64,000 nt of DNA from a virus (lineage: Duplodnaviria > Heunggongvirae > Uroviricota > Caudoviricetes). This document shows positions 9,481 to 63,974 of this stretch, one piece after another. The stretch lies in the IMG/VR virus record IMGVR_UViG_3300045988_147321; one strand, written 5' to 3'. The translations under genes and the position numbers were made by a program. Numbering within the stretch: position 1 is the stretch's first letter; each line of letters starts with the position of its first letter. The notes below the pieces were generated by a model. That model was given only the letters and a program-made list of their open reading frames with translations. It was not told the origin of the DNA and made no database searches.

Positions 9481-9593
9481 TTGTCATTTGTTACCGGTCA
9501 GTCTACACATTTCAGATACTACGTTAAAACAACTCAAGTGCTTCAAGTAGCACATCGTCATCAACACCCAATCCGAAGATGCGGAGATAAAAT

Positions 9594-10778
9594 TCAAGCC
9601 TTAAGAGGCTTTGTGTATGTTCGTGTAATCCAACCAGTAATAAACTCATCCCCTGATTTAACCTGCACGTAAAGCCATTGACGATCTTTCTTATCTAAAA
9701 TAGCAACAATTGTGTTTTTGCCAATGCATTCAATCACTTCACTATTTAAAGAAGGACTGACATGTAATCTTACGTTATCACCAGTTATAAACCTAAAACC
9801 ATTGAGATCTTCCCACTTAATTTCTGTGTTTTCTTTAATTAATTTTTGTTTTGATATTGGTGCATCCTCATATAGGGATACAGAATATGATTCTGTCTTG
9901 TGTATTTGCGATAAGATTTGTTCTTTTGCATAATCAGCAATAGCGCCAAGCACCACTTCTGTTAAAAGCCACATAATAATAAACTGAAGCGGGTGAGGGA
10001 GCGACTTAAATGAATCAATGAACGTCGAACTGGATTTATTTAATCCTTTGTCTTGAACATCACTTTCGTTGTGAGATGTTTCAATAGCACCTTCGACATA
10101 AGCCTGTGCAATTGATGAAAGACTTTGCTCCATTATTTGATGTAATGAAGCCTTTTGCGCTAGGGTATATTGTTTTAATGATTCTTTTATTTCATTGTTT
10201 AAATCTATCTTATGACTTACATTTTGTCGCAATTCATTAAGTATTGCTTGCATGTTATTTAAACCAGCTTGCTTATTAAGCATCTCGAACTGGTTTCGTA
10301 ACGGCATAGCAATTTCTGCCTGCTTCCTTAGCATTTGAATGTATTTATTTGCATCATGCGGGGGATAAACCTTGGCCTGTTTCTGTAGAATTTCAAGAAA
10401 TTCACGATGCTTGCTATTTATTCTTCTCAAGCTCGTCATGTTCGCAAGCTGTTTTTTAACAGAATCACTAAGTAACGATTGCAAATTCAATCTTGCTATT
10501 TGTTCTTGAGCTAGCCGCCCTATTCTTAACTGTTCTTGCAAGTTTGCCATATGTTCTCTATACGATGGAATGATTGCGTTTTTTTGCAGTTCTGCCAACT
10601 GTCTAACCAAATTATTAGAAGCATATTCTGATTTTAATAAATCACTTGCCGATGTATATCCTGGCATTTTGATTTTACTTAAATTATCACGCCAGGTAAT
10701 ATTTGAATCTCTATTATAGAGATCGCTTACTGAGCCAAGTGCAAGTTTTTTAATATCCTTCACTTTATTCACCGTCAT
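9594..10778 (-). CDS. membrane-anchored coiled-coil protein with C-terminal SH3b-like domain, 394 aa
   Basis: Hydrophobic segment FIIMWLLTEVVLGAIA; C-terminal SH3b-like signature (NVRLHVSP ... WLYVQV ... GWI); AT-rich coding sequence. Confidence 0.5.
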   Translation of the reverse strand: MTVNKVKDIKKLALGSVSDLYNRDSNITWRDNLSKIKMPGYTSASDLLKSEYASNNLVRQLAELQKNAIIPSYREHMANLQEQLRIGRLAQEQIARLNLQSLLSDSVKKQLANMTSLRRINSKHREFLEILQKQAKVYPPHDANKYIQMLRKQAEIAMPLRNQFEMLNKQAGLNNMQAILNELRQNVSHKIDLNNEIKESLKQYTLAQKASLHQIMEQSLSSIAQAYVEGAIETSHNESDVQDKGLNKSSSTFIDSFKSLPHPLQFIIMWLLTEVVLGAIADYAKEQILSQIHKTESYSVSLYEDAPISKQKLIKENTEIKWEDLNGFRFITGDNVRLHVSPSLNSEVIECIGKNTIVAILDKKDRQWLYVQVKSGDEFITGWITRTYTKPLKA

Positions 10779-11271
10779 CTTGCTTTAAACATCCATCATT
10801 TTTAGCTTCCTTGTAAATACTTGAAATTCCATCAAGAGAGAATGATGTAATTCGACGCGATCCGATATATACATCCATGTTTTTTTCTTTTGTGGCTGAC
10901 GCTGACTTCCAAAAAGAATACCATTCCCTACGATTTGGAGCAGTGTTTTGCGTACCAATATTAAAGCTATCCGAACCAACAATTAAGGTAATTACATCAG
11001 CTTTACGAGAAATTGTGTCGCGTGTAGAAAAATCAGCATTCTCTTTCCCTCCACTTACATACAAATTTCTTCCAGCTATATGATCTTCGGAACCTTCCCT
11101 TGCTCCAGCATCACAAGAAAAGTTAATTGTATAACCATCGTCATTGGTTGCAGAGATTTCTCTCCACCCTTGCTCACCTCCTACCGTCCAAACGGTAGAA
11201 CCTGCCATTGCTGATAATGGCAGAAAAGAGGACATTAATAAAAAGCTATACAATGACTTATATAATTTCAT
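10765..11271 (-). CDS. secreted protein with N-terminal signal peptide, 168 aa
   Basis: N-terminus MKLYKSLYSFLLMSSFLPLSAMAGS; 14-nt overlap with downstream gene start; AT-rich. Confidence 0.5.
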   Translation of the reverse strand: MKLYKSLYSFLLMSSFLPLSAMAGSTVWTVGGEQGWREISATNDDGYTINFSCDAGAREGSEDHIAGRNLYVSGGKENADFSTRDTISRKADVITLIVGSDSFNIGTQNTAPNRREWYSFWKSASATKEKNMDVYIGSRRITSFSLDGISSIYKEAKNDGCLKQDDGE

Positions 11272-11359
11272 ATTTTTATCCTTTTTGTTTTAGATATTAT
11301 AGGCATAGTCCATATTGTTAGATCCACTATGCCCAGAGAATTTAATATTATTCATTAAA

Positions 11360-11878
11360 TTATGGAGCTACACCCGGCCCCCTGGCTCGTTCTTCAAGCG
11401 TACCCTGCACGTTTTGATGGCGCATTCCTGGGGCATTTCTGATTGAGTCAATGCCATTTCTTCCAACATCTTCTTTATTAACGGCATTGCTCGCCACCAG
11501 CACACCCCAGCTAGGGATAGCAAAATCAGGAGCTGTTTCGCATGCCTTTACCATATAATCGAAAGTGCTTCGATTGATCTCATTTGCATCGGGGTTTAAT
11601 AGGCGAGAATATTGGTATTTAGCATTTGCGTTGGTTGAGACTTTATACAGTTCCTGCTGCACCATCGCTTCAGAAAGTTTAAGGCGCTTCATATCTGACA
11701 GTAACTTCTTGCGCATGGATTCGTCTTCACTGACAGCAAATCCGTAAACGTGCCCAAGGTATTTCGTATAATCGGTACAAATCTCCTTTACGCTTGATGC
11801 TGCATTAACAGTCCCAGCCATAAATAATAACGGTAGTAATAGTTTTCTCATTATAACCTCACCTGCCTTATAACTCAT
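11360..11878 (-). CDS. secreted protein with signal peptide; candidate superinfection-exclusion (Sim-like) protein
   Basis: Signal peptide MRKLLLPLLFMAGTVNAA; C-terminal PGMRHQNVQGTLEERARG matches Sit segment GRGMRREVVQGTLEERARG; sits where P1 has the sim locus, next to immI. Confidence 0.45.
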   Translation of the reverse strand: MSYKAGEVIMRKLLLPLLFMAGTVNAASSVKEICTDYTKYLGHVYGFAVSEDESMRKKLLSDMKRLKLSEAMVQQELYKVSTNANAKYQYSRLLNPDANEINRSTFDYMVKACETAPDFAIPSWGVLVASNAVNKEDVGRNGIDSIRNAPGMRHQNVQGTLEERARGPGVAP

Positions 11879-15380: not shown

Positions 15381-15430
15381 TAGATTGCTCTAATCTGGAG
15401 TCACCTGGCGTTTTCAGTTTGAGGTCGGAG

Positions 15431-15676
15431 ATGCAATCTGATTTTTTACAGTTAGCGATCGCTTTTGCAGGATATGTTTGTATTGGCTTCTGTGTATACA
15501 TGATCAGCCGAAAAATGCTTGTCGATATCGACCGCAAAGAACGAGCAGAGGAGATCTTAGTATGGATTTTCTTTGGCGCGGTCTGGCCATTAGGGATCAT
15601 GTTTGCTGCAACATTTCTTCTGATGTGGATATTCACCCTTCCAGGTGATTTCTATAGAAAAAAAGCCAGACATTGA
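15431..15676 (+). CDS. small membrane protein, 81 aa from internal ATG
   Basis: ATG at 15431 preceded by GAGGTCGGAG; two hydrophobic helices. Confidence 0.35.
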   Translation: MQSDFLQLAIAFAGYVCIGFCVYMISRKMLVDIDRKERAEEILVWIFFGAVWPLGIMFAATFLLMWIFTLPGDFYRKKARH

Positions 15677-15799
15677 TACAATCGTTGCGGGTGCTTGAGG
15701 CTATCTGCTTCAGGCATTACCCGAAAAGCAGATAGAAGAAAGCCCCAGATAACATTACGCGTCCTGCAAGACGCTTAACATTAATCTGAGGCCATATCT

Positions 15800-16006
15800 A
15801 TGCTTAGCATACGTAGATTAGCCTCTTACCGACCAAAAGGTCAAGGAGAAGCAGGCTATGAAGCAGCAAAAAGCGATGTTAATCGCTCTGATCGTCATCT
15901 GTTTAACCGTCATTGTGACGGCACTGGTAACGAGGAAAGACCTCTGCGAGGTACGAATCCGAACCGGCCAGACGGAGGTCACTGTCTTCACAGCCTACGA
16001 ATCTGA
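15800..16006 (+). CDS. mok-like overlapping reading frame, 68 aa
   Basis: ORF track; overlaps the Hok-like ORF in another frame and starts upstream of it. Confidence 0.35.
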   Translation: MLSIRRLASYRPKGQGEAGYEAAKSDVNRSDRHLFNRHCDGTGNEERPLRGTNPNRPDGGHCLHSLRI

Positions 16007-16013
16007 AAGGTAA
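15858..16013 (+). CDS. hok: Hok/Gef-family type I toxin, 51 aa
   Basis: Manual translation MKQQKAMLIALIVICLTVIVTALVTRKDLCEVRIRTGQTEVTVFTAYESER aligns with R1 Hok (CLT ... TRK-LCE-R-R-G-EV-F-AYES); SD AGGAGAAG 7 nt upstream. Confidence 0.75.
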   Translation: MKQQKAMLIALIVICLTVIVTALVTRKDLCEVRIRTGQTEVTVFTAYESER

Positions 16014-16085
16014 GAGACCTGGCGGGGAGAGATCCTCGCCACTCTTCGTGTGTCAGGTATCCTCAATGCACCCTTTCCTCTCCAA

Positions 16086-16110
16086 ATAAAAAAGCTCCCG
16101 AAGGAGCTTT
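16086..16110 (-). terminator. intrinsic terminator for the minus-strand tail operon
   Basis: AGCTCC-CGAA-GGAGCT stem-loop followed by a U-run on the minus strand, 20 nt after the 16130 stop. Confidence 0.55.
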
Positions 16111-23889: not shown

Positions 23890-24028
23890 CGAAAGTCATC
23901 CTTTATGCTGTATTTTTGAATTTAATTAAAAATGCTGCATAAAATAATAATGTATGCGTAGATGCTTGTACATAGCATTCTCTGCATGTTTGGTTCATTT
24001 TGCACGATTGAGAGTTACAAGGAGGGCA

Positions 24029-24050
24029 CAAAAAAGCCCCGTTCAGGGGC
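24029..24050 (-). terminator. intrinsic terminator 8 nt after the 24058 stop
   Basis: GCCCC-GTTCA-GGGGC hairpin followed by a U-run on the minus strand. Confidence 0.55.
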
Positions 24051-24057
24051 ATCAGTG

Positions 24058-24867
24058 TTATTTGCTAAGAGCAGCGAATAATCGTTCGAAATCGATAGTA
24101 TCTATAGCACGCGTAAGCGCCGGAAGTTCAGCCTCAAAGTACCCGTGTCGATCGTAAAAGAAGGGACCGAAGAGCGAGGCATGTTGGATTCTACTTCGCC
24201 CCAGCCCGGACACACAGTTAAGCCCATTACCGGCTAAAAGGCTAAAAAACTTCTCTGGATTATCGTGGTAAAGCTGGGAATCAATGGTGGCGGTTAACTC
24301 TTCCATAGGGAAGCACACCCGCCCTGTATCCCAGGGATATTTAGTCCGAAGCATAAACATTGCTTTCAGCAATTCACATTGAGCGCGGATCGCGTCCGGT
24401 TCATAGCCAGATATGGAGACATAAGCCACGTCCCTCATTCCTGCGTCATCTTTGAAAGTCACGATAGAAGTAACATCCAGCTCTTTTTCGAAAGAGCAAG
24501 CAGCATCTACTGGACGCTGAAGTAAATCATTCGACTTAATGCGCTCGAGAATCCCTCCCCACATATCATTTAGATATTCGATATGAGCCAAAACCTTATC
24601 AAGACACTCTCGTGTAAACCATTCAGTATGCCCGCCACCGACGCTTTTCTCCCACGGCGCATTCCAGGGGAAAAAGGTTGCGTGTAAAGCCCGCTCAAGA
24701 TTAACCATTACCAAACGCGTACCACGATAGACCCGTGAAAGCGCAAAATCGGGACTCACTTGTAGCCCTTTAAACCGTGCCAATGGACCACATGAAATGC
24801 CGATTTTAAAAGTATCTCCGTTCTCTGGCACCAGAACGTAGAGGTAGTGTTGTTTCTCTTCTTGCAT
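24058..24867 (-). CDS. T5orf172/Mug113-type (GIY-YIG-like) N-terminal domain protein with uncharacterised C-terminal domain, 269 aa
   Basis: N-terminal YLYVLVP ... FKIGIS ... GGGHTEWF motif pattern; single gene with its own terminator between par promoter and incA. Confidence 0.45.
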   Translation of the reverse strand: MQEEKQHYLYVLVPENGDTFKIGISCGPLARFKGLQVSPDFALSRVYRGTRLVMVNLERALHATFFPWNAPWEKSVGGGHTEWFTRECLDKVLAHIEYLNDMWGGILERIKSNDLLQRPVDAACSFEKELDVTSIVTFKDDAGMRDVAYVSISGYEPDAIRAQCELLKAMFMLRTKYPWDTGRVCFPMEELTATIDSQLYHDNPEKFFSLLAGNGLNCVSGLGRSRIQHASLFGPFFYDRHGYFEAELPALTRAIDTIDFERLFAALSK

Positions 24868-24884
24868 ATCAATACCACTGCTTG

Positions 24885-25158
24885 ATGAGAACCGCGCAAA
24901 TGTTGACTATGCGCGAAGGTTAATGTGAATAGTTGACTATGCGCGATGTGACTACAGTCAAAAGTTGACTGTAGTCGATTTAACTCCACCAAAGATCGAC
25001 TATGTAAGATATTGTCGGGAGAAACGTTGACTATACGCGATGAAATGCCCCTAAAAGCCATCTCAATAGCGACTTGCAGAATATTGACGCCAGCAAAAAT
25101 CCACCAGCGTCAACGAATGTCGCCTATAGTCAACTTCTCGCTATCGCATATAGTCAAT
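24885..25158. repeat. incA: incA iteron array (about nine RepA-binding repeats, core TGTTGACTATGCGCG variants)
   Basis: Repeats read directly; downstream of repA. Confidence 0.8.
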
Positions 25159-25159
25159 A

Positions 25160-26044
25160 TTATGGATTGCGCTTATGGATCTGGAAGCCGATTTTCCTGC
25201 CGTTTTTTATCTCTGAAAATTTAAGATATTCAATAGCTTCCAAATCTTTCATGGCTTTTCTGATAACGCTATTTTGCACGCTAACGGATGATTTGAGATT
25301 AAGCCTCGCTCTAAGGCGCTCAATGCTGACAGGTGCCGGGTTGGCGGGTAGAGCCTCAAAGAATGTATACAGTACCTTGGCCGTCTCTTTGCGCCCTAGT
25401 TTATCCAGCATCTTCAGCTTCAGGATTCGCTTATAGTCAACATAGTAAAGTTCAGATAGCTGTTTCTGCGGCTGGATCTCGATAACATCAAGCTCGGTAT
25501 TCAGGCTGCTATATGCCAACAAGTTGACGTTAATGTTATTGAGATGACCTTTTGCCGCCGGGAAGCGGAATTTGACAACTGTCTGCTGAATGCGTGTCAG
25601 AGAGTCATCAATACTTTTACGGAACGCCTTTGAAAGGCGCTTACGTGGATAGCCGCATCGATCGGCAAACTCGGAGAATGGCAGGGTGATTATGCCGTCA
25701 TCATCAGGTGCGTAGTCAAACAACGCGGAGGTTATGCCCACCCACACCTTAAAATCAGTATCCATATCCAGGCGTGGGCCATGAATTTCAATTCCCTCAT
25801 AGCCTTCCTGCTCAACAATTTTAAGGCTTGATAGTTCTTCGGTTGCGTTCGTTGTGTTTGTAGTAACTGACGATCCGCGACGTAGTGCCACATTGGTAGA
25901 TTTTAAGGTTGGCACAAACACACCTAAGCGCAACAAAGCGATAGGTTGTATAGTGCTGTTGTTATTAGGCTTCAGGCTGTGGATTTCTCCTGTATTTCCT
26001 GCAACTTCTTCAACGCTAAGGAAGCCTTTACTTTCTTCCGGCAT
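25160..26044 (-). CDS. repA: RepA plasmid replication initiator
   Basis: Flanked by iteron arrays on both sides. Confidence 0.8.
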   Translation of the reverse strand: MPEESKGFLSVEEVAGNTGEIHSLKPNNNSTIQPIALLRLGVFVPTLKSTNVALRRGSSVTTNTTNATEELSSLKIVEQEGYEGIEIHGPRLDMDTDFKVWVGITSALFDYAPDDDGIITLPFSEFADRCGYPRKRLSKAFRKSIDDSLTRIQQTVVKFRFPAAKGHLNNINVNLLAYSSLNTELDVIEIQPQKQLSELYYVDYKRILKLKMLDKLGRKETAKVLYTFFEALPANPAPVSIERLRARLNLKSSVSVQNSVIRKAMKDLEAIEYLKFSEIKNGRKIGFQIHKRNP

Positions 26045-26104
26045 CGTGGTTTCTCCATGTGTGGCGCGGCCTGGCGTTAATTTAGATGACTGTTATCAAC
26101 AGCT

Positions 26105-26230
26105 GTGAATATTCAGGCTCTAAAATCGCGTACAGTCAACGTTTCTGTCGCGTATAGTCAACAATAAATCGCGTGCAGTCAACATAAAATCGCACACAGT
26201 CAACATAAAATCGCGTATAGTCAATGTTGA
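26105..26230. repeat. incC: incC iterons (five repeats, core AGTCAAC) of the plasmid origin
   Basis: Repeats read directly upstream of repA. Confidence 0.8.
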
Positions 26231-26352
26231 TCCCGTTTCAGGCCATGAACGGCGCGGCTTACAGCGATCCGGGATCTTCTTTGGATCTTCCTAGGTTCTC
26301 TTTGGGATCTGTTTATTGGATCTATGCTGTGGATAAGTTGAATAAACCGGCC
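26222..26352. other. oriR: oriR: GATC cluster plus DnaA box TGTGGATAA
   Basis: Five or more GATC sites in about 90 bp and a consensus DnaA box, adjacent to incC. Confidence 0.75.
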
Positions 26353-48112: not shown

Positions 48113-48805
48113 ATGAAAGGCGAAGTGAAAGAGCGCGGCATGATTTTCAACGATGAGATGGTCCGGGCCATCCTCGAAGGAAGGAAGACGCAGACTCGCC
48201 GACCTGTAAAAAATGTCAGGGCCGATAACTGCCTGGTTATCCGTAAACCGACAAAGAAACGCAATGGTGTCTATACCCACGTTATGGATGCACCGGAACA
48301 TGGTTTATGCCCGTTCGGTAACGTTGGTGATCGTATATGGGTCCGTGAAGCGTGGGCGATATTAGGCAATGAGGATGGTTGCAGTGTGGACTGGAACGAC
48401 AACCTTTGTCGTGACGATGAGAAGAACGCAGCAAGGATTTATCGGGCCAGTTGTGAGCAAAAGCCTGGTGATTACGGTTTATGGTCGATACCCGATGATG
48501 CCGACTGGAAACCTCACACTGTGAATGAAAAGTATGAAGGAGGGTGGTGTCCATCAATTCACATGCCGCGATGGGCATCGCGCATTTTGCTGGAAATTAC
48601 CGACGTGCGTGTGGAACGGCTGCGTGATATGAGCGAGGCAGATGCTAAAGCAGAAGGCGCATCTCCGGCGATGTACAAAATTACGCCGCCGGAAGCTGTT
48701 TATCGCGTTGGTTTTGGTGATATCTGGCGCAGTATTTACGGGCAGGATAACTGGCTATCTAACCCGTGGGTATGGGTAATCGAGTTTAAGCGCGTTCAGG
48801 AATAA
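48113..48805 (+). CDS. hypothetical protein, 230 aa
   Basis: ORF track. Confidence 0.35.
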   Translation: MKGEVKERGMIFNDEMVRAILEGRKTQTRRPVKNVRADNCLVIRKPTKKRNGVYTHVMDAPEHGLCPFGNVGDRIWVREAWAILGNEDGCSVDWNDNLCRDDEKNAARIYRASCEQKPGDYGLWSIPDDADWKPHTVNEKYEGGWCPSIHMPRWASRILLEITDVRVERLRDMSEADAKAEGASPAMYKITPPEAVYRVGFGDIWRSIYGQDNWLSNPWVWVIEFKRVQE

Positions 48806-48808
48806 ACC

Positions 48809-49687
48809 GTGAGTATGCATCAAGTCGTCAGCTTTTCAGGTGGACGAACATCGGCTTATCTCGTTCATCTGATGGAAGCACAGCGAAAAGCTGGCGCTAG
48901 CGTCCATTTCATTTTTATGGATACCGGCTGTGAACATCCTCTGACGTATCGCTTTATTCGTGAGGTTGTGAAGTTCTGGAATGTACCGCTAACGGTGTTG
49001 CAGGTCGATATAAATCCAGAACTTGGGCAGCCAAATGGTTATACGGAATGGGAACCAAAGGATATTCAGACGCGAATGCCGGTGCTTAAACCGTTTATGG
49101 ACATGGTTAAAAAGTACGGTACGCCATACATCGGCGGCGCGTTCTGTACTGACAGGCTAAAACTCACCCCTTTCACGAAATATTGCGATGACCATTTTGG
49201 GCGAGGGAATTACATCACATGGCTGGGTATTCGTGCGGACGAACACCGTAGGCTGAAACCGAAACCGGGCGTCCGGTATCTTGCAGAGCTGTCAGATTTT
49301 GATAAGTCGGATGTTATCCGGTGGTGGCGAAAACAACCTTTTGATTTGCAAATCCCGGAGCACCTCGGGAACTGTGTTTTTTGCATCAAAAAGTCAACGC
49401 AAAAGCTGGGGCTTGCATGTAAAGACGAACCTGGTCTGATGCGGGTTTTTAATGAACTGGTTACAGGCAAACACGTCAGAGATGGTCATCGCAGAACAGG
49501 TAAAGACGTTATGTACCGTGGCCACCTGACGCTTGACGGGATTGCCAGAATGTATGCCGACAGTGACTACAGAAATTTGTATCAGGCGATGGTGCTGGCC
49601 AAGCGGTTTGATACTGGTTCGTGTTCCGAATCATGTGAAATCTGGGGTGACCAATTGGAGTTGAAATTCGAAGAGGTAGTGGAATGA
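48809..49687 (+). CDS. PAPS-reductase-like PP-loop protein, 292 aa
   Basis: N-terminal SFSGGRTSAYL PP-loop motif. Confidence 0.55.
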   Translation: MSMHQVVSFSGGRTSAYLVHLMEAQRKAGASVHFIFMDTGCEHPLTYRFIREVVKFWNVPLTVLQVDINPELGQPNGYTEWEPKDIQTRMPVLKPFMDMVKKYGTPYIGGAFCTDRLKLTPFTKYCDDHFGRGNYITWLGIRADEHRRLKPKPGVRYLAELSDFDKSDVIRWWRKQPFDLQIPEHLGNCVFCIKKSTQKLGLACKDEPGLMRVFNELVTGKHVRDGHRRTGKDVMYRGHLTLDGIARMYADSDYRNLYQAMVLAKRFDTGSCSESCEIWGDQLELKFEEVVE

Positions 49688-49887
49688 CAATCGTAAAAAC
49701 CCATACCGGTACCGTGATCACCAAAGATGGCCCGAAGGTAAAAAAACTGCACCAAACAGAGCGGATGTGGGTCGTCGGCAAAAACGAGTTTTACCACAAA
49801 GAAACTGGACGCCGCCATTTTGCAGAAAATACGCGCCGCCGACTGCTGTTAGACACCATCAAGCCTATCGAGGTGAAGCATGTTTAA
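49684..49887 (+). CDS. hypothetical protein, 67 aa
   Basis: ORF track; overlapping stop/start. Confidence 0.3.
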   Translation: MTIVKTHTGTVITKDGPKVKKLHQTERMWVVGKNEFYHKETGRRHFAENTRRRLLLDTIKPIEVKHV

Positions 49888-50079
49888 ACAGAACGAAAAA
49901 GCTATCGCTCAAATTGCTGATTATATCCCGCGTGCGTGCCGGGGTATGCAGTTGCAGGAAGCCAAAGCGCGCCTGGAGAAAAAAATTGCGCTCTATATTG
50001 ATGACGGCTGTGATGCCGCCGTTCTTAACGCGGCGTTCGCACCAGCTCTTAACTGTCACACTCGGGAGTCTTTTTTTTC

Positions 50080-50748
50080 ATGCATCGCAGCGCAACTCCG
50101 CCAAGGAGGCAACCAGTGAGCAAGATTGACTATCAGGCACTGCGTGAGGCGGCGGAACGTGCAATTCCAGCAATGGAACGCCTGTTAATGTTGCCAGCTG
50201 ATGATGATTTGTTAAGTGAACAGGAACTTAAAGATTACGGTGTGGATATTGATGCGCTCAACGCCTTCAAATTTCTGGCCGGACCAGAAACCGTGCTGGC
50301 ACTACTGGATGAACGGGAAAGAAACCAGCAATACATCAAACGCCGTGACCAGGAGAACGAGGATATTGCGCTAACGGTAGGGAAGCTGAGAGTTGAGCTT
50401 GAGGAAGCAAAATCAAAACTCAACGAGCAGCGTGAGTATTACGAAGGTGTTATCTCGGATGGAAGTAAGCGCATAGCAGAACTGGAAGCGCGGGAAATAA
50501 AACCAGCCAAAGGTGAAGTTCTGGTCGTTGTATCTGGTTTTACTGGTTGCGGAAAAAGCGCCATTGCCGGGGAAATAGAAATCGCGATGAAGGCTATTGG
50601 TGTACCGGTTAAGTGGACTAATGGCGATGCAGAAAAGCGCATGACTGGCGCTGACTGGCTGACTGCGATTGAGATGTACAAACCAACTGTGCGCATCGTG
50701 GAAGTTAATGTGCCACGCGCCGCTGGCATTCGCATCAAAGGAGAGTGA
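50080..50748 (+). CDS. P-loop NTPase with N-terminal coiled coil, 222 aa
   Basis: SGFTGCGKSAIAGEI Walker A. Confidence 0.4.
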   Translation: MHRSATPPRRQPVSKIDYQALREAAERAIPAMERLLMLPADDDLLSEQELKDYGVDIDALNAFKFLAGPETVLALLDERERNQQYIKRRDQENEDIALTVGKLRVELEEAKSKLNEQREYYEGVISDGSKRIAELEAREIKPAKGEVLVVVSGFTGCGKSAIAGEIEIAMKAIGVPVKWTNGDAEKRMTGADWLTAIEMYKPTVRIVEVNVPRAAGIRIKGE

Positions 50749-50749
50749 T

Positions 50750-51265
50750 ATGGCGTTAACACACCGCGAACTCTGTCAGATTGCGTACAAGTTCCTTAAG
50801 CGCAACGGGTTCAAGGTTTGTTTTCATGACCGCTTTATAGCTGTAACCAGTACCGGAGAACAGCCAGATGCTATGGGATTCAGAAATTCAGCATCATGCC
50901 TGATAGAGGCGAAGTGTTCTCGTGCTGATTTGTTGGCAGATAGAAAAAAGCGTTTCCGTAAAAATCCCTCACTTGGCATGGGCGACTGGCGATTCTTTAT
51001 TAGTGAGCCGGGAATTATTTCAGTTGAGGATTTACCTCCCGGCTGGGGATTACTTCACGTTGTTAACGGAAGAGTACGGAAAGTACATGGATGGCCCAAG
51101 GGGAATTGCTGTTGGGGTAACCCTGAAGATAAACCTTTTATTGGGAATAAGCAGGTTGAATGCGATTACATGTTATCTGCATTAAGGCGCATGGAGTTGA
51201 GAGGGCACCTTAATGAAATATATGACGGTGTAATTGTTAATAAGAAAGAAGGAAACGCGGCATGA
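50750..51265 (+). CDS. PD-(D/E)xK nuclease-like protein, 171 aa from internal ATG
   Basis: GEQPDAMGF ... LIEAKC motif; ATG at 50750 with SD AAAGGAGAG. Confidence 0.4.
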   Translation: MALTHRELCQIAYKFLKRNGFKVCFHDRFIAVTSTGEQPDAMGFRNSASCLIEAKCSRADLLADRKKRFRKNPSLGMGDWRFFISEPGIISVEDLPPGWGLLHVVNGRVRKVHGWPKGNCCWGNPEDKPFIGNKQVECDYMLSALRRMELRGHLNEIYDGVIVNKKEGNAA

Positions 51266-52479
51266 TCACTATTACCAAAGAGCGACTACTGACAATCAAG
51301 CAGTGGCGCGAAACATACGGACCTGGTAGCAACGTTGTACTGCCAGCAGAAGAAGCGGAAGAACTGGCACGAATTGCTCTGGCATCGCTGGAAGCAAAAC
51401 CAATAGGTGCATTCCACATTGCAGAACAGCAAGTTGACGGCACAAGTGACTACCTCAAGGATGGAGAATGGCCTATTGATAATGGAATTATTGAGGTCTA
51501 CGCCGCTCCCCCCGTTCCAGTAGTACCGGAAGAAAAACCAATGCCTAATCCTCTTAGCATGTACGCGGTTGATGCTGTTGCCGCTATTGCAGAGGTGAGA
51601 GGCTGGAACGCCTGCCGCGCCGCCATGCTTCAGTCCGGAAACTTTCGGGAAAACAAGAATTCGTCAACCAATAATTTTCGGGAAATCGCGGAAACGTCAA
51701 CCAACTATCCGGTAATTCCTAGTGAGGTGTTGTCCGCAATCCTGAAGGTTGCCAAGATTCGTGCCGATTTCGATGATTTTGACGGTGACAGGCGAGGTAT
51801 CGGTGATTGTCTGGATGAGGCTGAGCAAGAGCTTATCGTTACCATTAACAAATATGCCAGTCAGTTGGCAGCAGAACCGATAGCGACTAATGACGTTCGA
51901 GAGCAAACAGCCGTTCCGCCAGTTCCTGTAATACAGGCTGATGTCGCGCAGGCAATTGAAAAACTCAAACGGAAATTAGTGGAATGCAATCGCTATAACT
52001 ACTGCGCAGATGCAGTTAAGGGCGTTGAGTATGCCTGCCACGCTGCCATGCTTCAGGGTAGCCAACCTGTAAGCCAAACTTACAAGTTTCCAGTTAATAC
52101 ACCTTGCCAGGATGCGCCAGCCCATATCTGGCTGCAAACAGCTGGAGTATGGCCAGAAGATGGCGAGTTAAGCGAATTAACATGGTGCAGCCACAATCAG
52201 CACCATGATGACACGCTATATGTTCGAGCTGACTTGGTAAATGGCAATTCTCCGGTAACTCCGGATGGTTGGATAAGCTGTAGTGAGCGAATGCCGAATA
52301 CCAAAACAGCCGTTCTTGTTGCCGTGGAGTTTGACAGGAAAGGTGACTGGCGAATGAAATGGGCTACTTACATCCCGGGGCATCCTGACGCTAATGATGG
52401 GTGGATAATTCCTGGTGCGTCGTGGAAACCGTCACACTGGATGCCGCTACCAGAACCGCCGCAGGAGGTGAATCAATGA
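51262..52479 (+). CDS. hypothetical protein with DUF551-like C-terminal domain, 405 aa
   Basis: C-terminal WISCSERMP ... HWMPLPEPP pattern. Confidence 0.35.
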   Translation: MITITKERLLTIKQWRETYGPGSNVVLPAEEAEELARIALASLEAKPIGAFHIAEQQVDGTSDYLKDGEWPIDNGIIEVYAAPPVPVVPEEKPMPNPLSMYAVDAVAAIAEVRGWNACRAAMLQSGNFRENKNSSTNNFREIAETSTNYPVIPSEVLSAILKVAKIRADFDDFDGDRRGIGDCLDEAEQELIVTINKYASQLAAEPIATNDVREQTAVPPVPVIQADVAQAIEKLKRKLVECNRYNYCADAVKGVEYACHAAMLQGSQPVSQTYKFPVNTPCQDAPAHIWLQTAGVWPEDGELSELTWCSHNQHHDDTLYVRADLVNGNSPVTPDGWISCSERMPNTKTAVLVAVEFDRKGDWRMKWATYIPGHPDANDGWIIPGASWKPSHWMPLPEPPQEVNQ

Positions 52480-52543
52480 GCTGGCCTGAAGCATTCACCA
52501 CGGTAGGAATTGTGATGGCGGCAGCACTGGGTTTGTATTCAAT

Positions 52544-52795
52544 TTGTCGCTGGTGGTAACGATGGGAAAAATAACTTTTGTAGTCGAATTTGAGGATGGT
52601 AAAGAGCCACCTGTTAGCGCCAATCTTGATGTTGCTGGTGGCAGGCTTGTTTCGGTTCTATTTGGTGACTACCGAGATGACTTCTTCCAACCAGAAGAAG
52701 TTGATGTAGTGCGAGAGGCATTAAACGAGTTAAGTGTTGATAACGATGATGCTCATGCGGAAATCATCCAAAAAATGGAACTGCTAACTCACTAA
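52544..52795 (+). CDS. hypothetical protein, 83 aa
   Basis: ORF track. Confidence 0.3.
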   Translation: MSLVVTMGKITFVVEFEDGKEPPVSANLDVAGGRLVSVLFGDYRDDFFQPEEVDVVREALNELSVDNDDAHAEIIQKMELLTH

Positions 52796-52877
52796 ATTAT
52801 CAATTATGGTGCTATCACCTACGACACCGAGAGAAAATTTATAATGTCAAAAGTAAATGTTTTGATTTTTTCAGCAA

Positions 52878-53267
52878 TTGTTGGCTTTGGTTTTACTGCC
52901 GGAGTGCAGATTTATATTACGTGGGAAAAAATCATCAACTACGCATGGAGTTGTTTTATTAAGTGAGGTAAGTATGTGGAGAGGTAATAGTCATGGCAAA
53001 AGCCAGATGATACTTACCGAATATAAGCTAGACCACAAAACCAATAAATCACGTTCAGTATATTTGCTCCGGCACAATAGCCGCGTAAGAAATACCGTGC
53101 TGGAACAAAATCTGACAGTTGAAATGGATAATTACGGGGGATTCAAGCCAACAATTTCACTTGATGATTTTCCTCGTGGTTTAAGCGAAAGAGAAGCAAT
53201 GCTGAAATTAGCAGAATGGCTACAAAGATTAAGCATTGTTATTGAAGATAACTGGTCTGAACCTTAA
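52878..53267 (+). CDS. hypothetical protein, 129 aa
   Basis: ORF track. Confidence 0.3.
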   Translation: MLALVLLPECRFILRGKKSSTTHGVVLLSEVSMWRGNSHGKSQMILTEYKLDHKTNKSRSVYLLRHNSRVRNTVLEQNLTVEMDNYGGFKPTISLDDFPRGLSEREAMLKLAEWLQRLSIVIEDNWSEP

Positions 53268-53273
53268 ATTTAT

Positions 53274-53648
53274 ATGATGACACTAAAACATTTTCTTGAC
53301 CGCCCATTATGGGCGGCAGCCGCAGGCTATGACTTTAATTATATGGATTGCATGTCTTATACCGCCAATGCATACGACTATTCCTTCAGTCTGCTGCTTA
53401 ATTCTTTAAGAATATTGCCGCAAACAGAAGTTGGAGAGATTCATTTATGGCTATTGGGCTTTATCGCGGCTGGAGTTGGTATTGCTGTATGGCCTTTTAT
53501 TTTCTGGCTGGTGGCTGTTGTAGTGTGGTTTAAGTGCAAGACGTACCGGAGAAAGTATTTCTTAGGTGATGGAATGACTGATATTGCCAAAATGAACATT
53601 GAAAAATGGACTAAGGAATGTGAAAAGAAATGGCGCAAAAAGAAATGA
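53274..53648 (+). CDS. membrane protein, 124 aa
   Basis: Hydrophobic segment WLLGFIAAGVGIAVWPFIFWLVAVVVWF. Confidence 0.35.
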   Translation: MMTLKHFLDRPLWAAAAGYDFNYMDCMSYTANAYDYSFSLLLNSLRILPQTEVGEIHLWLLGFIAAGVGIAVWPFIFWLVAVVVWFKCKTYRRKYFLGDGMTDIAKMNIEKWTKECEKKWRKKK

Positions 53649-54280
53649 CCAGAATCACTGAAGAGCGTATATTAGAGATTATTTCCCGTATCGAAATGTA
53701 TGGTCACGGTGCTGGATATACGGCAGATGAAGTATTGGAAATAGCCCAGCAGATGCTGGCCTTGAGACAAAAAGAGCAACATGAAAGTAATACGTGTAGA
53801 TTGAATTTTGAGCAGTGGCTGGAACAGCAACGCGCGAAAATCGATGTGGACTGCGGTTGTGTGTCCACTGAAACATTCATGCACTGGCTGCGGGTAGCTT
53901 ACGAGGCTGGCAACTATCCGGATATTCCGGATAGTTCGGTGCCAGCGCCAGGAAAGGGCGTCACCGGTGAACGTATCCGCATTAAGCCGCATGTTTATCG
54001 CGAACTGGTTAACCGTCTCCACGATACAGCGATCAAGTGTGCTGGCACCCAGCAATTACGAGAAAGAATTAGCCGTGTTTTGGGCGACGTTATTACACCA
54101 GATCATCATAAACAAGCCGAGAAAAGTGACCTGGAAAGGTGTCACCTTGAGGCGGCATTAAACATTAAGCCGGGGCATACGCTTGGCATTATTGATGCAC
54201 TATTGGTTCATAAGATGGCCAGGGCTTTATTGCCGCTGGTGGCTGAAAAGCATGAGGTGGACCATGCCAACGAAAGCTGA
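53630..54280 (+). CDS. hypothetical protein, 216 aa
   Basis: ORF track. Confidence 0.35.
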   Translation: MAQKEMTRITEERILEIISRIEMYGHGAGYTADEVLEIAQQMLALRQKEQHESNTCRLNFEQWLEQQRAKIDVDCGCVSTETFMHWLRVAYEAGNYPDIPDSSVPAPGKGVTGERIRIKPHVYRELVNRLHDTAIKCAGTQQLRERISRVLGDVITPDHHKQAEKSDLERCHLEAALNIKPGHTLGIIDALLVHKMARALLPLVAEKHEVDHANES

Positions 54281-54548
54281 ATTACAGGTGCGCGTAGATG
54301 AGCTTGAAAAAGAGAACGCGAGCCTCAAAAAAATGCTGTCGCGGGCGGAAAGGGAATTATCAGGCAAATTATTGCCTGAAGAACTGCCACCAGCAGATAT
54401 ACCTGATCGAGTGTCCTGGTGGATGAAGTATTTCCGTGCACCGTGGGAGGCGTTTTGGTGCTACGACCATCGCAGATGGTGTGATGAACTTGATAGCAAT
54501 TTTCCCTACTTTGCGGAAGGGAACACCTGCCCTCAATGCAGGGGATAG
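54183..54548 (+). CDS. hypothetical Cys-containing protein, 121 aa
   Basis: ORF track. Confidence 0.3.
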   Translation: MALLMHYWFIRWPGLYCRWWLKSMRWTMPTKAELQVRVDELEKENASLKKMLSRAERELSGKLLPEELPPADIPDRVSWWMKYFRAPWEAFWCYDHRRWCDELDSNFPYFAEGNTCPQCRG

Positions 54549-54915
54549 CATTTGACGAAATCGATCACCCTATCCTGAACTTCAGAAAGAAGGTCTTTTT
54601 CACGCGCCAGGACGTCAGGATATTGACGTTCTGGCCTTACCAGATGCCGGAGCTTCCCATTAAGCAGAATGGCCTCAGAAAACACTTTTACGCTGTGCTT
54701 TATCCCCTCTGTTTCACTTTTCAGCGTCAAAATAAAGCGCAATTGCTTATTAGCCTGATTCGGATTCAATACACGAATTTGCAGTTCGTCTATGCTGTTC
54801 CGCAATGGGATTGATGCCACCACACTGGTGCAGTCTCTGATTGTCTGAATTGAACGGCTAACATTGAGAACGTTATTGTGCATGTGCCTGATCCACTAAC
54901 TCCTGGAGGTTTCTT

Positions 54916-55167
54916 GTGTCAGATCGAAATATAGCAGCTAAAAGCCAGGAAGAGCGAGACAAGGTGAACGTAGACCTTGCCGCCAGCGGCGTTGCTTACA
55001 AAGAACGGCTGAATATACCTGTGATTGCAGAGCAGGTGGCCCGTGAGCAACCGGAAAACCTGCGCGCCTATTTCATGGAACGGCTACGGCACTACCGGCA
55101 GTTAAGCCTCCAGTTGCCAAAAGGGAGCGATCCGGTGTATCAGAACGAGGATGCACCAAAAAAATAA
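54916..55167 (+). CDS. hot: Hot, homolog of DNA polymerase III theta subunit, 83 aa, GTG start
   Basis: Size and position upstream of humD. Confidence 0.7.
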
Positions 55168-60937: not shown

Positions 60938-61789
60938 CTATTGCGCGCTTTCGGGGTTGTCGTTTACTGGCTGCCCCTTCTTAGTTTTACGGCTGCGCGT
61001 AACTGATGCGGCTGATTTGACCTTTTTCTCTTCGCGAGTGATGGCAATTTGTTTTTTTACATTTTCAATATCTGCCAGGCGATATATTTTTGCCTGCGGC
61101 CAGCGGTCGCAGATGATCGGTTCTATAGAGTCATAAAGGCTAAATTTTGCTTTCTCGAATTCACCGTTGATGATAATTCCATCACGGAGAGTTTCATCGC
61201 AGATAAACACACCACATAGCGGCACATGGTAACTAACTGATTTACCATCATTGTAGTTAGGGCTACTAGAAATGTAATGGACGCGCAGCATTGTTTCGCT
61301 AAAGCCGTGTACGCGCATACGGAATTTTTCATCCTCCGGGTACTGCTTCATTAGCTCTTTTGTTGCTTCCAGGTTCTCTATGTATTTCGCACTGTGCTCA
61401 TTGATCCCTGCGCTTTTCTGGATGCGAATGTCCTTATCAATCAGATGAATAATGCGGCCAGCGGTCATGTTGACGCTGTTCACAGCTTCTGTCTGATAAG
61501 TCGTAACCTTACGCACACCGCGAAGGATGTTAGGCACTGGATATAAAATAGTCTTTGGGATATTGAGGTCTGGGTACTGTTCCAGTTCCCGCGCCATTAA
61601 AGTCCATTTATCAATTTCAGCCTGAATGCTGTCAGTTTCTTTGAACGGCAGAACGACAACCGGGCGTACAGGACGACCGTCGCTGGCGGCATCAACGTGT
61701 TGGGCGCGTGCAACAGCTTTTTTTAGAAAGAGATCCCTGAAGCTGACGAACTCCTGGTACAGTTGTTCGCCGTAGACATAATTTATCAT
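60938..61789 (-). CDS. c1: C1 repressor of lysis, 283 aa
   Basis: N-terminus MINYVYGEQLYQEF and size match P1 C1 as recalled; operators nearby. Confidence 0.9.
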   Translation of the reverse strand: MINYVYGEQLYQEFVSFRDLFLKKAVARAQHVDAASDGRPVRPVVVLPFKETDSIQAEIDKWTLMARELEQYPDLNIPKTILYPVPNILRGVRKVTTYQTEAVNSVNMTAGRIIHLIDKDIRIQKSAGINEHSAKYIENLEATKELMKQYPEDEKFRMRVHGFSETMLRVHYISSSPNYNDGKSVSYHVPLCGVFICDETLRDGIIINGEFEKAKFSLYDSIEPIICDRWPQAKIYRLADIENVKKQIAITREEKKVKSAASVTRSRKTKKGQPVNDNPESAQ

Positions 61790-61883: not shown

Positions 61884-61900
61884 AGATTTATTAGTGCATT
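61884..61900 (-). promoter_or_regulatory. C1-operator-like variant between coi and c1
   Basis: AATGCACTAATAAATCT in minus sense, 3 mismatches. Confidence 0.35.
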
Positions 61901-62109
61901 TATTGTGAGTCTGGCTGGTTAGTGGCCATGAGATATTCGATTGTGTCAGTGAGATCATCCAGGTCGTCTTGGGTGATGCGGTACTCCTGATTGGATATCT
62001 TTGAGTAGTGTTCAGCAATGGCGCGGGCAGCGTCGGTTTCGGCGGGGTCTACAGATAAAGCGTTAGAGCAATGTCTAACGTCGTCGATGGTTGGTGGAAT
62101 GAAAGCCAT
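61900..62109 (-). CDS. coi: Coi, C1 inactivator, 69 aa
   Basis: Size and position immediately upstream of c1. Confidence 0.75.
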   Translation of the reverse strand: MAFIPPTIDDVRHCSNALSVDPAETDAARAIAEHYSKISNQEYRITQDDLDDLTDTIEYLMATNQPDSQ

Positions 62110-62346
62110 AATTATGCCTCACTGTATTGACAACACAGAGCCTGAAGCTCTGACCTACTGTTTCACCCATGATCCATGCTGGGGTAATCTAACAACATTG
62201 CGCTGTGTGTAAGATGAGCAATGCATAGCTGTAATGCCGTTGTATAAGGTTTCCCTGTTTGCTCATTTCCTTCTGAGCCGCTCTACAACGCTGAAGACAC
62301 ATTAAATAGTGAATCCAAAGTCGTATTACGAAACGGCGGCAAAACT

Positions 62347-62363
62347 ATAATTTATTAGAGCAA
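62347..62363 (-). promoter_or_regulatory. C1 repressor operator (ATTGCTCTAATAAATTA in minus sense)
   Basis: 1 mismatch to consensus. Confidence 0.6.
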
Positions 62364-62430
62364 TTGTCAAACAACTATGAAAAACAATCCAGTTTTTGGC
62401 TGGTGGAGTGGGATTTTTCTCTCAAAATTT

Positions 62431-62447
62431 ATTGCTCTAATAATTCT
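62431..62447 (+). promoter_or_regulatory. C1-operator-like site (ATTGCTCTAATAATTCT)
   Basis: Core conserved; part of the operator cluster upstream of coi/c1. Confidence 0.5.
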
Positions 62448-62490
62448 TGATTTTTATGCGCAGCTGGACGTAAACTCCTCTTCAGACCTA

Positions 62491-62524
62491 ATAACTTCGT
62501 ATAGCATATATTATACGAAGTTAT
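62491..62524. other. lox recombination site: 13-bp arms ATAACTTCGTATA / TATACGAAGTTAT with 8-bp spacer GCATATAT
   Basis: Arms identical to loxP; spacer differs from GCATACAT at one position. Confidence 0.9.
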
Positions 62525-62543
62525 CTTAAGGGTTATTGAACAT

Positions 62544-62616
62544 GATCAATTTACCTGTAAATCCATACAGTTCAATACCTTATCAGGTCAAATAGTGATC
62601 ACTTGATCATTTGATC
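62544..62616. promoter_or_regulatory. GATC (Dam) site cluster in the cre upstream region
   Basis: Four GATC sites within 73 bp. Confidence 0.6.
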
Positions 62617-62713
62617 AAGGTTGCGCTACGTAAAATCTGCGAAATGTTGGCAGTGTTAGTGCTCCAGATTTCGCGTAGCGCACTTAGCACCACCAATCAA
62701 TCAGAGGTGAAAA

Positions 62714-62935
62714 ATGGGATATTCAGCTGCTAAAGTGTCCACTCATCTTGAGCTTGAGAAAAACCGTGGTTACTGGCGGGCAAAAGGGTTTGATCGTGAT
62801 AGTTGCCAACTGTCATTATCGCGCGGTGAAGAGAAAATAGAACGCACGCGCGGTCGCTGGCGTTTCTATGACGAGAACCATAAACAGGTAAAGGCAGAGC
62901 CGATCCTGTACACTTTACTTAAAACCATTATCTGA
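62714..62935 (+). CDS. small basic protein, 73 aa, immediately upstream of cre
   Basis: ATG preceded by AGAGGTGAAAA; ends 8 nt before the cre ATG. Confidence 0.4.
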   Translation: MGYSAAKVSTHLELEKNRGYWRAKGFDRDSCQLSLSRGEEKIERTRGRWRFYDENHKQVKAEPILYTLLKTII

Positions 62936-62942
62936 GTGTTAA

Positions 62943-63974
62943 ATGTCCAATTTACTGACCGTACACCAAAATTTGCCTGCATTACCGGTCGATGCAACGA
63001 GTGATGAGGTTCGCAAGAACCTGATGGACATGTTCAGGGATCGCCAGGCGTTTTCTGAGCATACCTGGAAAATGCTTCTGTCCGTTTGCCGGTCGTGGGC
63101 GGCATGGTGCAAGTTGAATAACCGGAAATGGTTTCCCGCAGAACCTGAAGATGTTCGCGATTATCTTCTATATCTTCAGGCGCGCGGTCTGGCAGTAAAA
63201 ACTATCCAGCAACATTTGGGCCAGCTAAACATGCTTCATCGTCGGTCCGGGCTGCCACGACCAAGTGACAGCAATGCTGTTTCACTGGTCATGCGGCGGA
63301 TTCGAAAAGAAAACGTTGATGCCGGTGAACGTGCAAAACAGGCATTGGCGTTCGAACGCACTGATTTCGACCAGGTTCGTTCACTCATGGAAAATAGCGA
63401 TCGCTGCCAGGATATACGTAATCTGGCATTTCTTGGGATTGCTTATAATACCCTGCTACGTATAGCAGAAATTGCCAGGATCAGGGTTAAAGATATCTCA
63501 CGTACTGACGGTGGGAGAATGTTAATCCATATTGGCAGAACGAAAACGCTGGTTAGCACCGCAGGTGTAGAGAAGGCACTTAGCCTGGGGGTAACTAAAC
63601 TGGTCGAGCGATGGATTTCTGTCTCTGGTGTAGCTGATGATCCGAATAACTACCTGTTTTGCCGGGTCAGAAAAAATGGTGTTGCCGCGCCATCTGCCAC
63701 CAGCCAGCTATCAACTCGCGCCCTGGAAGGGATTTTTGAAGCAACTCATCGATTGATTTACGGCGCTAAGGATGACTCTGGTCAGAGATACCTGGCCTGG
63801 TCTGGACACAGTGCCCGTGTCGGAGCAGCGCGAGATATGGCCCGCGCTGGAGTTTCAATACCGGAGATCATGCAAGCTGGTGGCTGGACCAATGTAAATA
63901 TTGTCATGAACTATATCCGTAACCTGGATAGTGAAACAGGGGCAATGGTGCGCCTGCTGGAAGATGGCAATTAG
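62943..63974 (+). CDS. cre: Cre tyrosine recombinase, 343 aa
   Basis: Sequence MSNLLTVHQNLPALPVDATSDEVRKNLMDMFRDRQAFSEHTWK ... matches Cre as recalled. Confidence 0.95.
   Translation: MSNLLTVHQNLPALPVDATSDEVRKNLMDMFRDRQAFSEHTWKMLLSVCRSWAAWCKLNNRKWFPAEPEDVRDYLLYLQARGLAVKTIQQHLGQLNMLHRRSGLPRPSDSNAVSLVMRRIRKENVDAGERAKQALAFERTDFDQVRSLMENSDRCQDIRNLAFLGIAYNTLLRIAEIARIRVKDISRTDGGRMLIHIGRTKTLVSTAGVEKALSLGVTKLVERWISVSGVADDPNNYLFCRVRKNGVAAPSATSQLSTRALEGIFEATHRLIYGAKDDSGQRYLAWSGHSARVGAARDMARAGVSIPEIMQAGGWTNVNIVMNYIRNLDSETGAMVRLLEDGN

Follow-up and report, generated by a model that had tools for sequence, protein, structure and literature searches.

A native Cre/lox site with a rare natural spacer change in an E. 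coli P1-like phage-plasmid

The site at 62491-62524 of the 64,000-nucleotide stretch of DNA analyzed here (the window) is the native Cre/lox site of an E. coli P1-like phage-plasmid and carries a rare natural change in its spacer. The most probable explanation is that a near-neutral transition, G:C to A:T, occurred recently at position 3 of the spacer in the native lox site of an element that retains its own intact Cre.

The lox site, its recombinase and the surrounding element

The letters at 62491-62524 (ATAACTTCGTATAGCATATATTATACGAAGTTAT) were divided into a left Cre-binding arm of 13 bp at 62491-62503 (ATAACTTCGTATA, plus strand), an 8-bp spacer at 62504-62511 (GCATATAT, plus strand; reverse complement ATATATGC) and an inverted right Cre-binding arm of 13 bp at 62512-62524 (TATACGAAGTTAT, plus strand). 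The resulting 34-bp site, to which no strand was assigned, is one base off the feature 'loxP recombination site' of the P1 reference X03453 (ATAACTTCGTATAGCATACATTATACGAAGTTAT). Both arms are the same as the loxP arms of X03453 and the single difference is at 62509 (plus strand), where the C of P1 is replaced by T. The original prediction had described this arrangement, loxP arms around a spacer with T for C, and it was confirmed by the comparison with X03453. P1 does not share the spacer, which is GCATACAT in X03453 and GCATATAT in the window. In the conventional ATGTATGC orientation of the loxP spacer, numbered 1-8 (PMC1479339 Table 1), the change at 62509 is a G to A substitution at position 3, and under the numbering of Hoersten et al. 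2024 the same base is position 2' (G2' to A).

The architecture is that of a lox site, with perfect 13-bp inverted repeats flanking an asymmetric 8-bp spacer. The asymmetry is retained since GCATATAT is not equal to its reverse complement ATATATGC. Strict loxP has the spacer ATGTATGC (or GCATACAT in the opposite orientation), from which GCATATAT differs by one mismatch, and 62491-62524 is therefore named a lox allele and not loxP. A search for the two lox arms around any 8-bp spacer, allowing up to 3 mismatches, gave 62491-62524 as the single match within the 64-kb window, and the arm pattern gave 0 matches in 100 shuffles of the sequence. By reading of the sequence, pairing of the variant spacer in the wrong orientation leaves mismatches at overlap positions 2 and 7, that is at 2 of the 6 overlap positions as against 4 of 6 for loxP. 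Orientation control should persist owing to these residual mismatches.

Creation of a new promoter across lox by the substitution was considered and rejected, as a consensus scan of 62000-63100 on both strands found nothing promoter-like. A minus-strand TATAAT formed by arm and spacer can be read in the variant and is also present in canonical loxP. The 50-aa ORF spanning lox (62377-62529) is merely a mechanical ORF. An origin of the change by a quasi-palindrome or template switch was also rejected; the C to T substitution gives an ATAT palindrome in the central four bases, but the mechanism would require 2-bp primer pairing. GATC (Dam) sites are clustered at 62545-62625, directly downstream of lox and upstream of cra. 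This is the region of the cre promoter pR1 annotated in X03453; the cluster is conserved with P1 and is untouched by the spacer change.

On the left of lox the minus strand carries the large terminase gene, the c1 repressor gene (60938-61789) and coi, the C1 inactivator (61900-62109). On the right, cra (62714-62935, plus strand), the Cre-associated ORF of 73 aa, is followed by cre. The ORF assigned to c1 has counterparts annotated in homologous plasmids and in phiW39, that assigned to coi is annotated 'coi' in phiW39 and 'c1 repressor inactivator' in plasmids, and cra agrees in position and length with ORF1 of X03453 and with phiW39 cra. The site is thus in the native place of lox in a P1-type genome, with immC (c1, coi) on one side and cra-cre on the other, in the order c1-coi-lox-cra-cre.

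An intact cre starts 419 bp downstream of lox (62943-63974, plus strand; coding 62943-63971, stop 63972-63974), so that the site has a cognate recombinase. The product is a tyrosine recombinase of 343 aa (Pfam Phage_integrase, E = 8.9e-33). It is identical at 342 of 343 residues to P1 Cre and to the Cre of PDB 1NZB, the sole difference being D343N, which is specified by the codon AAT at 63969-63971 (plus strand). The C-terminal end reads EDGN in the window and EDGD in P1 Cre and crystallised Cre (1NZB and others), and the contrast drawn in the original prediction, DGN here as against DGD, was accordingly correct. As only the last residue differs from crystallised Cre, all catalytic residues are unchanged. 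Several Cre crystal chains end at residue 341. In free Cre the C-terminal peptide has been described as docking over the DNA-binding surface, an arrangement that is autoinhibitory (PMC11661208), and the loss of one negative charge at the very end through D343N could be imagined to tune this docking slightly at most.

A tie between D343N and the spacer change, which had been hinted at when the two were first noticed together, was not supported. D343N was found with the canonical spacer in five loci (L021, L057, L230, L318, L336), and D343 was present in three of the five carriers of the T spacer. D343Y was also found among natural Cre sequences. Fisher's test of spacer T against D343N gave p = 0.047 on data that are non-independent and unevenly ascertained, and this value was not regarded as an association since one of the loci (L057) has the Cre of the window with the canonical spacer. 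Changes in the recombinase that track the change in the site, as in a co-evolved pair, were not found for the Cre and lox of the window. D343N recurs as a natural polymorphism and does so independently of the spacer.

Collinearity with P1 (NC_005856) extends from pmgB (P1 coordinate 44,801, where the compared P1 stretch begins) to the end of the record, in a comparison that covered the window from 7.7 kb onwards. The P1 record terminates within the lox spacer and the window runs on into the start of that record. The last 24 kb of the window are 97-98% identical to many E. coli P1-like plasmids, with no identical plasmid in PLSDB. Among deposited lox-cre regions, those of phiW39 and Salmonella phage SJ46 are the closest, at 99.3% over 1.7 kb.

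Elsewhere in the window several regions depart from P1. The replication region at 23989-26250 is unlike that of P1, with a Rep3-type initiator (25160-26044, minus strand) that does not match P1 repA/incA at the nucleotide level, and an ORF with a T5orf172 domain (24058-24867, minus strand) between the initiator and parA; the element is probably of a different incompatibility type from P1. A stretch of ∼5.3 kb at 48637-53898 (also 54243-54921) has no P1 counterpart; it is bordered by the pmgT-like region and by the intergenic region of lxr and humD, and is upstream of humD. The stretch codes for a PAPS-reductase-domain protein, for Ead/Ea22-like and DUF551 proteins and for several ORFs without a Pfam match, as is typical of the variable cargo regions in P1-like plasmids. 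In place of sim (superimmunity) and of part of rlfA/rlfB in P1, the window has unrelated sequence at 9493-11711 and 15395-16087; the ORF at 9594-10778 (minus strand) has a weak match, under the Pfam cut-off, to a bacterial SH3 domain. Three tRNA genes at 32778-32931 and 34559-34634 (Asn-GTT, Thr-TGT and one with a CAT anticodon) are in the same order as P1 trnA, trnT and trnI.

Frequency and origin of the T allele

The T allele was searched for with a 40-mer that has the variant base at its centre, so that no 28-base seed can avoid this base. Among 5,426 complete E. coli genomes the 40-mer was found in 4 plasmids (pPSS-12_1, pPSJ-07_1, pLH13-b-B and p1-S1-INA-02-A), all of which contain GCATATAT. 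These plasmids are complete, 80-112 kb in length, and came from human or poultry faeces in Ecuador and Switzerland. The same four plasmids were obtained from PLSDB, and the 40-mer had no match in the INPHARED phage collection. RefSeq annotation at the T-allele matches is 'none'.

For comparison, the canonical 40-mer was found in 680 records in the complete E. coli genomes. A sensitive search of these genomes with the canonical 34-mer gave 696 records, of which 677 were at 100% identity, 16 had a single mismatch and 3 had two. On these counts the T allele is real, natural and rare, at ∼0.6% of sites (4 of ∼696 lox-bearing E. coli records), and is the commonest non-canonical spacer among those found here. 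Overall, ∼3% of the lox sites in complete E. coli genomes differ from loxP. The T allele was present in none of the 101 IMG/VR loci with intact lox arms (103 sites), in which the spacer is canonical at 99 of the 103 sites and different in four loci (GCGAACAT, GCGTTCAT, GCATGCAT and ATGTGTGT).

The matches listed for GTDB genomes and metagenomes were mostly canonical loxP from unrelated organisms or contigs and are uninformative on the frequency of the T allele. Among these, canonical loxP was present, often in multiple copies, in scaffolds of unrelated bacteria (Gemmata, Candidatus Paracaedibacter, Legionella tunisiensis, Sediminibacterium and others; L108-L227), and in many contigs of one metagenome project and in marine assemblies (L228-L347). 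The loxP of these scaffolds and contigs is most likely library-linker or cloning-vector sequence and not biology.

The four other spacers are each located between perfect loxP arms, at L034 2605-2638, L077 4527-4560, L069 1524-1557 and L092 2092-2125 (GCGAACAT, GCGTTCAT, GCATGCAT, ATGTGTGT). GCGAACAT was also found in a complete E. coli plasmid of ETEC4073 (NZ_CP122664.1 13457-13496). The Cre adjoining the L034 and L077 sites is the same as P1 Cre in amino-acid sequence, and no full-length cre was recovered beside the L069 and L092 sites. The GCATGCAT spacer is fully palindromic, so that directionality would be lost. The natural spacers with two substitutions should be more strongly heterospecific than the T allele. 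Two arm variants, both belonging to the 16 one-mismatch records among the 696, were also observed: a left-arm variant (ATAAtTTCGTATA) at L348 1801-1834 in pEC12-3, and a terminal T to C change of the right arm at L349 1801-1834 in the E. coli 181.1 plasmid p3.

The origin of the allele was followed in an alignment of 90 lox-cra-cre segments of ∼1.68 kb each. Besides the C/T difference at 62509, IMG/VR locus L057 and the window have 0 differences over the 1,676 compared bases of lox-cra-cre, and over the surrounding 8.7 kb they differ at about 1.2%. A match at all but 62509 points to a recent T change in the lineage of the window, by point mutation on a canonical background. Among the other T carriers, the closest or equal-closest sequences in each lox flank include one with the canonical spacer, and the pattern is again at the level of the tips.

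The T allele is present on four immediate flank haplotypes, with three or four cre alleles, and phiW39 has the same immediate lox flanks as the window. Recurrence of T was considered as a sign of selection or of a mutational hot spot and this was rejected, since the dispersion is unexceptional in a heavily recombining region: T carriers diverge like random pairs (ratio 1.11), and of the remaining rare alleles in the 1.68-kb alignment 12.5% show at least as much dispersion. The nearest neighbours of the left flank of lox are often not those of its right flank. This is expected if lox acts here as it does in P1, where it is a crossover hot spot. Plasmids pPSS-12_1 and pLH13-b-B have in common the T spacer and an ISKpn26 inserted at one and the same place ∼400 bp left of lox (L102 1610-2760 and L104 1610-2760), with clearly different cre alleles on the right, which suggests exchange at or near lox. 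The pattern is consistent with a mosaic junction at lox, formed by Cre-mediated reassortment between P1-like elements.

Expected recombination behaviour and competing explanations

In P1, lox is used for cyclization via the terminally redundant copies and for resolution of plasmid dimers. Both tasks pair a site with a copy of itself, and under the favoured explanation the T site would recombine with identical copies, namely the two in the terminal redundancy of infecting DNA and the two of a plasmid dimer. Cre would bind both unchanged arms and make staggered cuts 6 bp apart within the spacer. Since self-pairing gives perfect spacer homology, the function of the T site would be preserved. With loxP as partner, a single position of the 6-bp overlap would be mismatched, on the side transferred in the second strand exchange; Holliday junctions would form and their resolution to products would be impaired, giving reduced but leaky cross-recombination.

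Estimates of self-proficiency and of cross-reactivity with loxP were drawn from the literature on engineered sites, with secondary summaries standing for Lee and Saito 1998. In a screen of ∼6,000 matched spacer pairs, 84% were efficiently recombined, sensitivity was centred on positions 1, 7 and 8 (A4', G3 and C4 in the numbering of that paper) and not on position 3 (2'), and transitions were tolerated better than transversions (PMC11260471). The G to A change at position 3 is a transition outside positions 1, 7 and 8, and normal or near-normal function is therefore expected for recombination of the T site with itself. In the pooled assay of Missirlis et al., positions 3 and 7 were the most sensitive to base changes overall and G-to-A changes lowered recombination, and on this account some loss of self-efficiency may occur.

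As summarised in PMC1479339 and PMC4777119, Lee and Saito 1998 found spacer positions 1 and 8 to be tolerant, with mismatches at positions 2-5 arresting at the intermediate; the two summaries do not agree in how they assign spacer positions to steps of the reaction. According to the second of them, positions 3-6 leave compatibility with the wild type 'less perturbed' than position 7 does (PMC4777119), and lox511, itself a position-7 mutant, has been reported to be leaky (PMC1479339). By extension from these engineered sites, recombination between the T site and loxP is likely to be reduced and not abolished, a leaky and partial exclusion. Heterospecificity to loxP, as proposed in the original prediction, is plausible but was probably overstated.

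The same considerations may account for the identity of the variant. The spacer holds only three G:C pairs, of which those at positions 7 and 8 would be functionally constrained and that at position 3 would not, and G:C-to-A:T transitions are taken to be the commonest spontaneous substitutions. With the only unconstrained G:C pair at position 3 and the commonest class of change acting on it, G3 to A would be expected to be the commonest spacer variant found.

Four other explanations of the T base were weighed against the near-neutral transition. A mildly deleterious site, with lowered self-recombination and in the course of being purged, would agree with the rarity of the allele and its place at tree tips, with the 16% of matched non-canonical spacers that recombine poorly (PMC11260471), and with the one pooled screen in which position 3 is among the most sensitive and G-to-A reduces recombination (Missirlis et al.). 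It was nonetheless judged unlikely: the larger and newer screen maps sensitivity to positions 1, 7 and 8 and not to 3 (2'), with transitions tolerated (PMC11260471), and no fewer than four complete plasmids of 80-112 kb, healthy by all appearances, still carry the allele. Selection might instead have favoured the T spacer as a block to Cre-mediated cointegration or reassortment with canonical-lox P1-like elements in shared hosts. Such adaptive heterospecificity was considered quite unlikely, given the allele frequency of merely ∼0.6%, the canonical-spacer sequences among those closest to the carriers in each flank, a spread over backgrounds that is unexceptional for rare alleles in this region, the description of a single position-3 mismatch as a weak and leaky barrier in the summary given by PMC4777119, and a Cre that does not change along with the T spacer. 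In its favour are the four flank haplotypes and three or four cre alleles on which T is found, the further natural non-canonical spacers GCGAACAT, GCGTTCAT and GCATGCAT, and the known lowering of cross-recombination by spacer mismatches, again as summarised (PMC1479339, PMC4777119). The broader proposal that natural spacer alleles (GCATATAT and the rarer GCGAACAT, GCGTTCAT and GCATGCAT) divide P1-like phage-plasmids into groups between which Cre can bring about neither cointegration nor reassortment, and that selection maintains them as recombination isolation, is very unlikely to hold.

The remaining two explanations deny that the T is a natural base of the element. A sequencing or assembly error at 62509 was thought highly improbable. 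The T is a lone base on a background otherwise identical to the canonical-spacer locus L057, as an error would be, but four independent complete assemblies show this substitution too, the context of 62509 is not a homopolymer, and the difference of about 1.2% from L057 outside lox-cra-cre means that the window represents a separate isolate and not the L057 DNA sequenced a second time. From these alignments the T of the window appears to be a recent point mutation, with sequence error much less likely. Single-base spacer mutants have been made deliberately (PMC1479339), and an engineered lox variant from a laboratory construct was considered for this reason; it is wholly improbable in a full native P1-like context across 64 kb that is 97-98% identical to many wild plasmids, for a spacer that is not among the common engineered ones (511, 5171, 2272, m2, m3, m7 and m11; PMC1479339) and whose other carriers are faecal isolates.

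Comparison with known systems

Few recombination systems are understood as well as Cre/lox, and in vitro work on spacer mutants with one changed base dates back decades, so that the importance of the site for wider biology is limited. Of modest value is the documentation of a low level of lox polymorphism in wild P1-like plasmids, whose sites are given no label by automatic annotation. The natural lox alleles are ready-made tests of the limits that spacer identity sets on Cre-mediated exchange between co-infecting phage-plasmids. A literature search for the exact spacer (ATATATGC / GCATATAT) together with lox returned irrelevant matches and, from the supplement of Missirlis et al., a single clone of incidental nature, and a search for natural lox spacer polymorphism found no paper describing it.

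The P1 loxP/Cre system (X03453; NC_005856) has the same 34-bp architecture, the same 13-bp arms, the same place between immC (c1-coi) and cra-cre and a Cre identical at 342 of 343 residues. The window differs from it by the T at 62509 (position 3 G to A) and by Cre D343N. The lox-cra-cre regions of phiW39 and SJ46 (L014) are nearly identical to that of the window, whereas both have the canonical GCATACAT spacer and phiW39 Cre has D343. In contrast to the co-evolved pairs Dre/rox and VCre/VloxP, the Cre of the window is without changes that track the change in its site.

Among engineered sites, the closest are the 24 single substitutions of Lee and Saito 1998, which, as described in PMC1479339, combine a single change in the 8-bp spacer with wild-type arms, as does the single transition of the window. 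The set is complete by construction and therefore includes position 3 G to A; the site of the window is natural and theirs are engineered. In lox511 the substitution is G to A at position 7, while that of the window is at position 3, which is summarised as less perturbing to compatibility with the wild type (PMC4777119). The lox2272 and lox5171 sites are likewise spacer-only variants, meant to recombine with themselves, but their spacers have two substitutions, one of them at position 7, and they are essentially exclusive. With one substitution, outside position 7, the site of the window would be expected to be much less exclusive than either.
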